Position numbers: made by a program. 64,000 nucleotides of DNA from assembly GCF_054482595.1 (NCBI RefSeq), contig NZ_CM137008.1, one strand, 5' to 3'. Position 1 is the stretch's first letter. Every line of letters begins with the position of its first letter. Of the stretch, positions 44,801-47,800 are shown piece by piece.

Positions 44801-47800
44801 GCTGGCATTCGCATCAAAGGAGAGGAGCATGGAAATAAAACCAGAAGATGAGTTAAGTAATATTGTTTTATTTCCGGTAAAAGAGGATGACCCACGTAAT
44901 CAGGTTAATTTTCTTTATGAGCCATCGGAAAGACCATACTGCCATCACGCTTCTGTCCGGGTTGACGAAAAAGAGCGTCAGGTCCGCTGTAAAATCTGCG
45001 GTGCAGTTGTGGAGCCATTTGACTGGATGCTCTCTGTGGCGAAAAGAGAAACCAGACTGGCAGATGATGTAAAACTATTGCGCCAGGAGGAACAGGAAAG
45101 GCGAAAAAATATAGAAAAGCTAATTCAGATTGAGCGTAATGCGAAAGCACGGATACGCAGGGTGACAAAATCCAGAACTGAATAATTAAATTTAGCACTG
45201 TTAAAAATTTAATCCTTAACCGGAGGGATTTCTGCACCCTCAGAACAGCAGGAGGCCACCCGAAAGGGTGGTAGTGAAATGCGAAAGTTCAAAATAATTA
45301 TTGAAACGGGAATAGCTGGTGGAGATTTTGAGGATGTATTCGAAGTGGACGATGACGCAACACCTGATGAAATTCATGACGAAGCAAAAGAAATTTTCTT
45401 TAACTACTGCAATTACTCATATCACGAAATAAAAGACGAAGAGGAAGAACAAAATGGCTGATTTTGGTTCAACTAAATACAACGTCAGTTTTGAAGAATG
45501 GCATGAACTGTTAATGGACTATGCAGAGTTACGTGGTGGAAGTGCTGCTGATGCTGAAGCCTGGCGTGATGACTACGAAGCAGGAAAAACTCCGGTCGAA
45601 GCATATTGTGATGAGTGGGGCGATGAATGAGCGAGATTAATTATCAGGAAGGGCATGAAACGGCAGGGCAGGCAAAACCAGTTGCATGGCGATATCGCTA
45701 CGTGAAAAAAGGCGTTACGGACTTTCAGGAGAAGATGTGGGTTGGTGACTGGAAATATGTACCGACAAAAGAGGGGTGCAACGACAGGCCGGGCTATGAG
45801 ATTCAGGCCTTATTCACTACCCCGCCAGTCCCTGTGATATCAGAAGGACTGGTTAAAGCCGTGCGCTTTTATGAACAGGTAAAGCGTGAGAATCCACCAG
45901 TCGAAACAGGAGCATGGAAAGATGCTGTTGATTGGGTACTCAAAGAGGCCTGCTGTGCTGTCATTCTGGGTAAAGCCGACAATCCACTAGCATCCAGTAA
46001 TCAGGTTGGCGAATTAACAATGTGGGTTAAACGACTGGTCAGTCAACTGAAAAAAGCTAATCCAGACTGCAAATTACCGGAGATGGCGATGGATTACCTG
46101 AAACGAAATGGACTGATAAGCGTGGAGGATGTTTTACGATGACCTGGCCTGAGGCATTTACAACGGCAGGAATCGCAATGGCTGTGGCGCTGGTGGTGTA
46201 TTCGATTTGCCGCTGGGGATAAAAACGGTTTGCGGGAAAAGGAGAGTTAAGTAGAATTGCAGCGGGTGCTTGAGGCTATCTGTCTCAGGCATGAACACCA
46301 AAAGGCAGATAGAGAAAAGCCCCAGTTAACATTACGCGTCCTGCAAGACGCTTAACATTAATCTGAGGCTCAATCTATGAACGGCAAATCTAGGTTAGCC
46401 TCTTACGTGCCGAAAGGCAAGGAGAAGCAGGCTATGAAGCAGCAAAAGGCGATGTTAATCGCCCTGATCGTCATCTGTTTAACCGTCATTGTGACGGCAC
46501 TGGTAACGAGGAAAGACCTCTGCGAGGTACGAATCCGAACCGGCCAGACGGAGGTCGCTGTCTTCACAGCTTACGAACCTGAGGAGTAAGAGACCTGGCG
46601 GGGGAGAAATCCCTCGCCACCTCTGATGTGTCAGGCATCCTCAACGCACCCGCACTTAACCCGCTTCGGCGTTTTTTCCGTTGATTAACTCTAGTTATTA
46701 GAGAACCGAACTTTTATTGATGGGGCAGGGAGATGAAGAAACTTGTTTTAGTCGCAGGTGTAATGATTGCAACAGTAATGTTGGGAGGGTGTGCAGCAAA
46801 GGTCGATCCAGCGTTGAAAGCAGAAGCAATGAAGCCACTAACATGTAATGATGAAAAGCAATGTGACTTTTATTGGAAACGAGCGCAATTCTGGTTGGCT
46901 AATAATTCCTCATGGAAAATTCAAACGGCGACAGACACGCTAATTTCCACTTATAATCCCTCTCCAAATAGTCCATTCCTCGCTTATCAGGTGAGTAAAA
47001 TGCCAAATGAAGATGGATCCTCAAGAATTTTCATCAAGCCTTTTTGCGATAATATGTTTGGCTGTCAACCAAACCCCTATCAGGCAGTTGTTTCCTTTAA
47101 AAACTTCGTTAAAACAGGGCAGTAGTGTATAGCTTGGACGATAAATTATTAGTGAAAACGCCGTAAACCCTCACCCAATGTGGACTAAGTCTATCAAACA
47201 TGACTGTGATGATTAGTCCGTAGTTGTTGCCTATGAAATCTGGATTGAGTCAGGGTTTAATCCAATAATTATTCTATCGTTCCTTTACAAGTCCGGTATA
47301 TTACTTTCAGTTTGTTTTAGCATACCCGCTTCGGCGGGTTTTGTTTTTTCCTGGCATTCTGGTTTACAATTCGCACGCCAGCCTGAACAACTGGCACCTG
47401 CTGCGCCAGCAGAGACAACCGATGGCGCACGATACCAAATTACACAATTCTGATGATTCTGCCGTCTTTGCCAGCAGGCACGGGCGGCGTTCCCGCACTT
47501 TCAAATCTGACTGGTTCCAGCATGACCCATGTACTGAAGAACAGGCCGAATGGCTAATTCATAACTATCGCAGACGCGGATACGAGATTAAGAAAGCCCT
47601 CAGCCTCGATTATCGTCACTGGATAATCTATGTCAGGCTCCCTTATTCCGAACGCCCACCGCGCCCATCCCGCACATACCAGCAACGGATCTGGAGGTAA
47701 CGTGCGGATATTACTTCGACCTGTTCTGGTACCGGAACTCGGGCTGGTGGTCCTTAGGCCGGGCCGTGAATCCATGCAAGTATTTCATAACCCTCGAGTG

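Follow-up and report, generated by a model that had tools for sequence, protein, structure and literature searches.

A 665-bp lipoprotein cassette in the hok terminator of an Escherichia coli prophage and its possible role in phage exclusion

The window analyzed in this study is a 64,000-nt stretch of the Escherichia coli chromosome (contig NZ_CM137008.1 of RefSeq assembly GCF_054482595.1) in which a lambdoid prophage is integrated beside mtfA and tRNA-Ser. In the early-right arm of this prophage, a 665-bp cassette carrying the gene for a 130-aa lipoprotein is inserted in the transcription terminator of a hok/sok toxin-antitoxin locus. Our preferred explanation, to which a probability of roughly 0.45 was assigned, is that the cassette is a moron expressed in the lysogen and that its product is a periplasm-facing outer-membrane lipoprotein that inactivates a phage receptor or entry route. 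The exclusion function is suggested by the placement of relatives of the gene, beside tail-tip genes and repressors, because this placement matches the pattern of proven exclusion lipoproteins.

Insertion of the cassette into the hok terminator

The cassette (46672-47336, + strand) comprises a leader, the lipoprotein gene, a 3′ untranslated region (UTR), and the right copy of a repeat; its limits were taken from an alignment with a base-exact empty site. In phage 813R8, the same hok and downstream genes are directly joined, and the window has exactly 665 bp extra. The cassette is also missing from phages 640R1 and Evi. The G+C content (GC) is 0.38-0.41 within the cassette, compared to 0.52-0.55 in the flanks. 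Because the gene is absent from collinear phages and its GC differs from that of its surroundings, it was classified as a moron; the preliminary description of this DNA had used the same term, and the empty site in 813R8 and the GC shift bear it out.

At the empty site, the end of the hok transcript reads ACCCGCTTCGGCGGGTTTTGTTTTTT. The cassette enters after ...GGCG, and it sits in the descending arm of the hok mRNA terminator. A 13-nt direct repeat, ACCCGCTTCGGCG (repeat family D3), is located at both cassette ends (46659-46671 and 47324-47336). The left copy continues as TTTTTTCCGTTG; with the six T residues that follow the repeat, it forms a truncated hok terminator (46659-46677, +) whose stem has only 3 bp (CGC/GCG; -3.1 kcal/mol). 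The 46-nt context of this stub folds no better than shuffled sequences do (z = -0.5), no call was made there in a terminator scan, and the truncated form was present in 53/53 E. coli-type copies examined. The right copy is part of an intact hok-type intrinsic terminator (ACCCGCTTCGGCGGGT followed by TTTGTTTTTT; 47324-47349, +) that is identical to the one at the empty site. It features a 6-bp GC stem, a UUCG loop, and a U-rich tail (-10.9 kcal/mol, z = -3.9 versus shuffles), and it begins 198 nt past the lipoprotein stop codon. Thus, the terminator that had been placed before the promoter in the preliminary description proved to be the 3-bp remnant of the hok terminator, and the strong terminator placed after the gene is present but is the regenerated hok terminator.

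Related cassettes suggest how this arrangement could have arisen. In an Enterobacter prophage (locus L005) and a Pantoea-type prophage (locus L067), an intact CCCGCTTCGG(C/T)GGGTTTT hairpin is found just 5′ of the conserved leader; the energies of these hairpins are -9.1 and -10.7 kcal/mol. The L067 hairpin matches the hok terminator at 20/20 positions. The simplest history would be a single crossover between a cassette-borne 5′ terminator and the near-identical hok terminator, an event that would leave a hybrid copy on each side. In PPompW/Stx2a phages (L003, 1935-2192), the rem gene fills the slot just after the hok terminator. Because rem occupies this site in PPompW-type phages, the post-hok slot appears to be a recurrent cargo position in lambdoid prophages.

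The cassette was found in 254/5,426 complete E. coli genomes (about 5%), always on the chromosome and, among the loci compared, essentially always in the hok slot. The carriers listed include clinical isolates of sequence type 131 (ST131), enteroaggregative E. coli (EAEC) 042, enterotoxigenic E. coli (ETEC), and avian isolates. It is also carried by the induced E. coli phages 689R5 and 606R7. A tblastn search of 50,697 phage records returned only two near-identical E. coli prophage records and thus no close relative in that set (the inclusion of the Rtp and mEp genomes among those records was unchecked). The output of a related-locus search based on the closer alignment was dominated by identical E. 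coli copies. In strain ETEC1716 (L089, NZ_CP122880.1, 2103500-2116000), a degraded prophage has lost its head and tail genes and keeps hokD, an intact lipoprotein ORF (open reading frame; five substitutions), the DUF968 gene, rusA, and Q. This case favors expression in the lysogen, because the ORF has remained intact in a prophage that lacks head and tail genes.

Several carriers have additional elements at or near the cassette. An insertion sequence (IS) of the IS481 family lies just 5′ of hok in ETEC1716. In E. coli 503440 (L093, 2223-3436) and also at locus L016, IS1203 is situated about 7 nt before the lipoprotein start, parting the gene from the leader and hok; the ORF is intact. At locus L035, the cassette is separated from hok by about 1.35 kb of additional DNA. 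In E. coli 042 (L087, 7726-22955) and OkiPb01703 (L092, 9897-24862), the large terminase gene of this prophage type is split by an integrated satellite-like element. Besides integrase, SSB, and DUF927 primase-like genes, the element has a capsid, portal, protease, and terminase set of its own.

The 3′ UTR of the lipoprotein gene (198 nt; 47126-47323, +) is AT-rich and has no significant fold (z = -0.9). It was considered as a candidate small RNA and rejected; there was no match in Rfam and its stability was ordinary. A 68-nt indel (about 47172-47239) is located between 16-nt inverted repeats (47164-47179 and 47244-47259). The indel contains an internal GGACTAA/TTAGTCC stem and may represent either a structured element or a very small mobile insertion. 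The short allele, which lacks these 68 nt, was observed in phage 606R7 and in about 10 IMG/VR loci.

The lipoprotein and its family

The lipoprotein gene was identified in the list of ORFs at 46733-47125 (+) and encodes 130 aa. The protein begins with MKK, which is followed by a 13-residue hydrophobic core, LVLVAGVMIATVM, and by LGG immediately before C20 (lipobox MLGG/C20). All elements of a type-II signal peptide, i.e. a basic n-region, a hydrophobic h-region, and a lipobox, are present. The signal peptide takes up codons 1-19 (46733-46789, +), and the codon for Cys20, the predicted site of lipidation, is at 46790-46792. The mature protein would be 111 aa long, with Ala at position +2. Besides C20, there are four cysteines (C38, C44, C105, and C111) that constitute two CX5C pairs. 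The preliminary description of a Cys-rich, 130-aa lipoprotein with an LGGC lipobox is therefore accurate.

In an alignment of 40 relatives (32-52% identity), C20, C38, C44, and C105 are invariant and C111 is nearly so; in 12 closer relatives (66-85% identity), none of the five varies. A lipobox of the L-x-[GA]-C type is found in 40/40 relatives, and Asp occurs at position +2 in 0/40. The Ala at +2, together with the absence of Asp from this position in the relatives, implies Lol-dependent sorting to the outer membrane according to the E. coli rule. Judging from these sequence features, the protein is probably lipidated at Cys20, cleaved by LspA, and sorted to the outer membrane, and the two CX5C pairs probably form disulfides.

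When compared to the 606R7 allele, the ORF has nine synonymous and four non-synonymous differences, corresponding to a ratio of non-synonymous to synonymous substitution rates (dN/dS) of 0.11. The same ratio was obtained with the homologue from Enterobacter hormaechei, for which dS is about 1.2. A dead ORF was excluded on account of this ratio; this is a real coding gene under purifying selection.

The protein is identical to RefSeq entry WP_000737636.1, which is annotated "hypothetical protein". In PHROGs it matched phrog_16082 (E = 2.6e-84) and, more weakly, phrog_4186, both of which are labeled "unknown function". When 1.84 billion representatives were searched exhaustively with a profile and the hits were grouped at 50% identity, at least 1,141 clusters had E ≤ 0.001, of which 532 also passed E ≤ 1e-10. 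Members are mostly 120-140 aa long, and the names attached to them are "hypothetical" or "lipoprotein". No match to the 130-aa protein was obtained in Pfam (E ≤ 0.001), NCBIfam, or the PDB sequences, and PADLOC 2.0 returned 0 families at E ≤ 1. The homology search suggested in the preliminary description uncovered a large family, in the clusters and as phrog_16082, but no named match in these four resources. Searches of the published literature on prophage lipoproteins and exclusion, and of the accession and PHROG numbers, returned nothing on this family.

The mature domain was modeled with AlphaFold2 using 12 sequences. The best model had a predicted local distance difference test score (pLDDT) of 84 and a predicted template-modeling score (pTM) of 0.72, and it features a helix, a strand, a long helix, four strands, and a C-terminal helix. 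This predicted architecture is that of a compact alpha-beta4-alpha (helix-grip/KA1-like) domain; it is a generic one that would fit a periplasmic binding module and that assigns no function. Among longer members of the family, 12/22 have a C-terminal PDZ domain, and the copies on Acinetobacter plasmids have an N-terminal LysM domain.

All relatives for which the genomic context was inspected are on mobile elements. Members were also found in Shewanella, Mycetohabitans, Paraburkholderia, Nitrospira, Methylocystis, and metagenomes. Six independent placements are among or beside tail-tip genes: between TMP and gpM in Enterobacter; between gpI and gpJ in Pantoea ananatis; after gpK and a Fic gene and before gpI at a metagenomic locus; among cargo (an anti-repressor and other lipoproteins) before gpI at L066 and L067; between DUF1833 and a 127-aa ORF that precedes a J-like gene at a second metagenomic locus; and before gpI on a 54-kb Klebsiella phage-plasmid. 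Some of these tail-slot relatives neighbor NlpC/P60 tail proteins.

Other relatives are located in immunity regions. There, they lie directly 3′ of, and on the same strand as, a repressor with helix-turn-helix (HTH) and Peptidase_S24 domains, at a distance of 45 nt in four Citrobacter prophages and 1 nt in three metagenomic ones. These repressor-linked genes are divergent from cro/ydaS-like genes, i.e. they are in the rexAB position. In a ydaS/ydaT-type immunity region, a relative is on the strand of a small HTH repressor, about 0.9 kb downstream, with a ydaS-like gene between them. In one further prophage, the relative adjoins another lipoprotein gene, and still other members reside on mobile islands with transposase, integrase, or restriction-modification genes. 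Finally, Citrobacter and Salmonella have ColE1-type plasmids of 2.5-4 kb on which a relative with 42% identity is the one accessory gene evident; its identity with the Citrobacter prophage copy is 79%. That it is the sole cargo of such small plasmids indicates a stand-alone benefit.

A second, unrelated small lipoprotein gene is often paired with members of the family (L074, 6339-6662; L071, 5662-5997; L066, 4374-4784). In one case it is an overlapping ORF with a LAAC lipobox that follows the cI-adjacent copy; others are phrog_10370, upstream, and phrog_890, downstream.

Transcription and the hok/sok locus

Expression of the gene in the lysogen is likely; this was inferred from the intact hok/sok unit upstream and from the relatives that are co-oriented just 3′ of cI-type repressors. 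Loci of the hok/sok family are constitutively transcribed. Read-through from hok would be the most economical route to lysogenic expression, because the upstream hairpin has only 3 bp, no good promoter was found, and hok is constitutive. In the lysogen, transcripts from the hok promoter would read through the stub into the lipoprotein gene, perhaps aided by a weak promoter of its own, and would stop at the hok terminator regenerated downstream. Once the prophage is induced, transcription of the early-right operon would cover the gene as well.

A consensus scan revealed no sigma-70-like promoter 5′ of the ORF. The best pair in a position-weight scan is a weak candidate, TTAACT (46685-46690) and GAACTT (46708-46713) with a 17-nt spacer (46685-46713, +). 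Its score is 5.8; shuffles of the same 142 nt had a mean best score of 6.1, with a 95th percentile of 10.2. At the homologous position in L067, TTAACA-17-TAACTT scores 10.1, and the -10 element of the window (GAACTT) is without the first T of its L067 counterpart. A weak, decayed promoter belonging to the cassette is possible. The GAACTT at 46708 was also considered as part of a sigma-E-type promoter, which was rejected: there is no matching -10 element, and the motif is not kept in relatives.

The spacer of the candidate promoter contains a palindrome, CTCTA-GTTAT-TAGAG (46689-46703, +), that was noted in the sequence and the alignment. Relatives have palindromes in the same place: TAGGA-TTAG-TCCTA (L005), TAGGA-TTAC-TCCTA (L067), and GGAT-TT-ATCC (L066). 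Position and symmetry are kept while the sequence varies, and the element may be an operator or an RNA hairpin.

The preliminary description held that the gene is an autonomous transcription unit bracketed by terminators, with its own promoter after an upstream terminator and its own downstream terminator. On this view, it would be transcribed independently of hok and the early operon. Related cassettes in other phages have just these features: an intact upstream terminator, a positionally conserved promoter-like pair, and a strong terminator no more than about 60 nt from the stop codon. In tail-slot relatives, a terminator belonging to the gene itself immediately follows the stop codon. The relative on the Citrobacter/Salmonella small plasmids is likewise equipped with a terminator and a -10 box (TAAAAT) of its own. 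The window retains the homologous positions of the promoter-like pair; however, that pair scores at chance level and the consensus scan was empty, the upstream hairpin is a stub in all copies examined and is unlikely to stop hok transcripts, and the downstream terminator belongs to hok, inside whose terminator the entire cassette lies. An autonomous unit is accordingly judged rather unlikely in the window, and read-through from the hok unit is at least as likely.

As read from its sequence, the hok/sok unit 5′ of the cassette is intact. Its 5′ regulatory region (46264-46439, +) matched the Rfam sok RNA model RF01794 with 112.4 bits (gathering threshold 59) and E = 3.5e-26. It starts with GGGTGCTTGAGG (46264-46275, +), the likely "tac" element at the 5′ end of the hok mRNA. 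The mok frame (46377-46589, +; 70 aa) matched the MokW-like phrog_251 (E = 7.7e-33), and the 51-aa type I toxin gene hokD is inside it (46434-46589, +). RefSeq annotates hokD in strain 165, and the match to the NCBIfam Hok family falls below the cut-off of that model. The sequence CCTCAACGCACCC (46640-46652, +), near-complementary to 46264-46275, is a probable fbi element, which we take it to be by analogy with the hok mRNA of R1. It is intact, because the insertion point is 3′ of it.

On the other side of the cassette, the first gene is at 47422-47700 (+) and encodes a 92-aa protein of phrog_1212 (function unknown). Next come the DUF968/YdfU-like gene, rusA, and Q, and the order of the early-right arm is thus hok/sok, lipoprotein cassette, 92-aa gene, DUF968/YdfU-like gene, rusA, and Q. 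The cassette interrupts this operon.

Proposed exclusion function and competing explanations

According to the proposed mechanism, the lipoprotein would be exported, lipidated at Cys20, and folded as a helix-grip domain that is probably pinned by two disulfides. It would act in the periplasm on a component of the outer membrane, most likely a phage receptor or entry route, and the outcome would be resistance to superinfection. The mode of action would be that of Llp, Cor, and Rtp45, exerted by an unrelated and larger protein.

Llp is small and disulfide-stabilized. Like the 130-aa protein, Llp and Cor (of phi80, N15, and HK022) are phage-encoded and have a type-II signal peptide; they have the periplasm-facing outer-membrane anchor that is predicted for the 130-aa protein, and their genes, like those of several of its relatives, are near those for receptor-binding or tail-tip proteins: llp of T5 adjoins the receptor-binding protein gene oad, and cor of phi80 is just after J. 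They differ in that the mature protein is 111 aa here versus about 57-61 aa, its predicted fold is helix-grip alpha-beta4-alpha, and the gene in the window is in the early region beside hok, away from the tail genes. From the periplasmic side, Llp binds FhuA and Rtp45 binds LptDE; surface loops are altered, and phage binding is stopped (PMC12685063). The genes for Lpp021 and Lpp010 of the mEp phages are in the structural cluster, and these proteins exclude phages that share the receptor OmpA or LamB (PMC11893012). Rtp45 and Lpp021/Lpp010, as small lipoproteins from structural-gene clusters that act in the periplasm to exclude phages with the same receptor (PMC12685063, PMC11893012), supply the working model for the 130-aa protein. 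At about 6 kDa, Rtp45 is the smaller protein (PMC12685063).

When a 40-sequence profile of the family was compared to phi80 Cor and T5 Llp in hhalign, 20 columns were aligned, covering the signal peptide only; with lambda Bor there were 17 such columns. Overall, alignments to Cor, Llp, Bor, and MorF spanned just 16-20 signal-peptide columns. The match to PHROG 1119 (Cor/Llp) had E = 0.007 over residues 1-44, with 0 significant stretches. Because only the signal peptide aligns, the protein was placed outside the Cor, Llp, Bor, and MorF families; with no Pfam match either, the earlier statement that it is not Bor or Cor stands.

Further resemblances concern gene position. The slots downstream of cI (lambda rexAB) and between tail genes (HK97 gp15) are the classic locations of lysogen-expressed exclusion genes, and relatives of the 130-aa protein are found in both. 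The proteins are unrelated, however, and the Rex and gp15 systems operate in the inner membrane or the cytoplasm, without outer-membrane lipoproteins. MorF of phi80 (PHI80_20; L082, 2105-2638) is a lipoprotein moron (lipobox ISGC) located between gpI and gpJ, the slot of the Pantoea relatives; it is 177 aa long, and alignment with it is confined to the signal peptide. As MorF and the Pantoea relatives illustrate, lipoprotein genes of differing origins seem to accumulate in the tail-tip slot. The Flpp3/DUF3568 lipoprotein of Francisella and the N-terminal domain of BamC were also listed among the closest known systems. Membership in the Pfam family DUF3568 (Flpp3-like lipoproteins of Francisella) combined with the same fold was looked for and was not found for the 130-aa protein.

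The C-terminal type of J was compared among cassette-bearing E. coli prophages. It was common to the 4/4 checked (94-98.5% over 200 aa), whose heads are lambda-like or HK97-like and whose attachment sites differ; this association is suggestive. As an indicator of the receptor, J was uninformative: its C-terminus matches many lambdoid prophages whose receptor is not known.

Several considerations weigh against an exclusion function. Neither homology nor experiment ties the family to any function, and Llp, Cor, and Rtp45 are only about half as large as the mature protein. The shared J type may reflect common descent, and phage 2G7b has the same J type without the cassette. Only the best of the five AlphaFold2 models is confident (the other four had values of 52-73), and the predicted fold is generic. 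The PDZ and LysM fusions suit a periplasmic binding role, not receptor masking specifically. Lastly, hairpin energy alone is the ground on which read-through from hok was inferred.

Alternatively, the lipoprotein could be a factor like Bor, Iss, or TraT that promotes host fitness in animals (serum/complement resistance, adhesion, or envelope robustness) and does not block phages. Bor has its own promoter and terminator and is located beside the lysis genes. Bor and Iss are lambdoid prophage lipoprotein morons that are compositionally foreign and lysogen-expressed, properties that the gene in the window shares, if its predicted expression is correct; moreover, its carriers include clinical ST131, EAEC 042, ETEC, and avian isolates, it is kept in a decayed prophage, and being the sole cargo of small plasmids fits any stand-alone benefit. 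Nevertheless, the protein has no sequence relation to Bor or Iss past the signal peptide and no Pfam match, the family extends to environmental Proteobacteria and metagenomes, where serum resistance is irrelevant, and repeated placement at tail tips and repressors is typical of genes for phage-phage competition. We regard such a factor as improbable. The same small, disulfide-containing periplasmic lipoprotein, as predicted, might instead serve as an envelope immunity protein or inhibitor that neutralizes toxins or enzymes arriving from outside, such as bacteriocins, the peptidoglycan-hydrolase effectors of type VI systems, and phage tail lysins or endolysins. Its presence as orphan cargo on ColE1-type plasmids, the adjacent NlpC/P60 tail proteins in tail slots, and the fusions to domains that bind peptidoglycan (LysM) or peptides (PDZ) are consistent with that function, to which still less weight was given.

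A role in the phage life cycle, as an outer-membrane spanin-like protein or a tail assembly factor, is largely excluded, and either such a role or a functionless ORF would be very surprising. Cys-bearing outer-membrane lipoproteins do exist in lysis (Rz1), and several relatives are inside tail operons. The prophage, however, has a complete lysis cassette of its own (holin, lysozyme, and lysis protein), collinear, inducible phages do without the gene, and relatives occur beside repressors and on 2.5-kb plasmids; a functionless ORF is contradicted by the dN/dS. Identification as a u-spanin or as Rz1 was specifically rejected, since the protein lacks both a C-terminal membrane helix and the proline-rich character of spanins, in addition to the lysis cassette and the dispensability just mentioned.

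If the exclusion reading is set in the context of the whole family, the mobile-element lipoproteins with a helix-grip fold, of which the 130-aa protein would be the E. coli representative, could constitute a new structural class of envelope exclusion proteins that act by receptor masking or by blocking entry and whose cassettes move by recombination at near-identical terminator hairpins; this broader proposal is put forward tentatively. The object itself is of an ordinary kind, a prophage moron lipoprotein, from an uncharacterized and very large family of mobile-element genes. Its anatomy is a clean example of moron entry, with probable recombination at a terminator hairpin, a crippled upstream copy, and a transcription unit that is probably shared with a toxin-antitoxin locus. 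If a function in exclusion or defense is true, a large class, recognizable from its lipobox, its two CX5C pairs, a length of about 125 aa, and its residence on mobile elements, would be added to the few known envelope-level exclusion proteins. With the allele in about 5% of complete E. coli genomes, ST131 and EAEC 042 included, it would then help to explain the resistance of lysogens and small-plasmid carriers to therapeutic phages and possibly to colicins.

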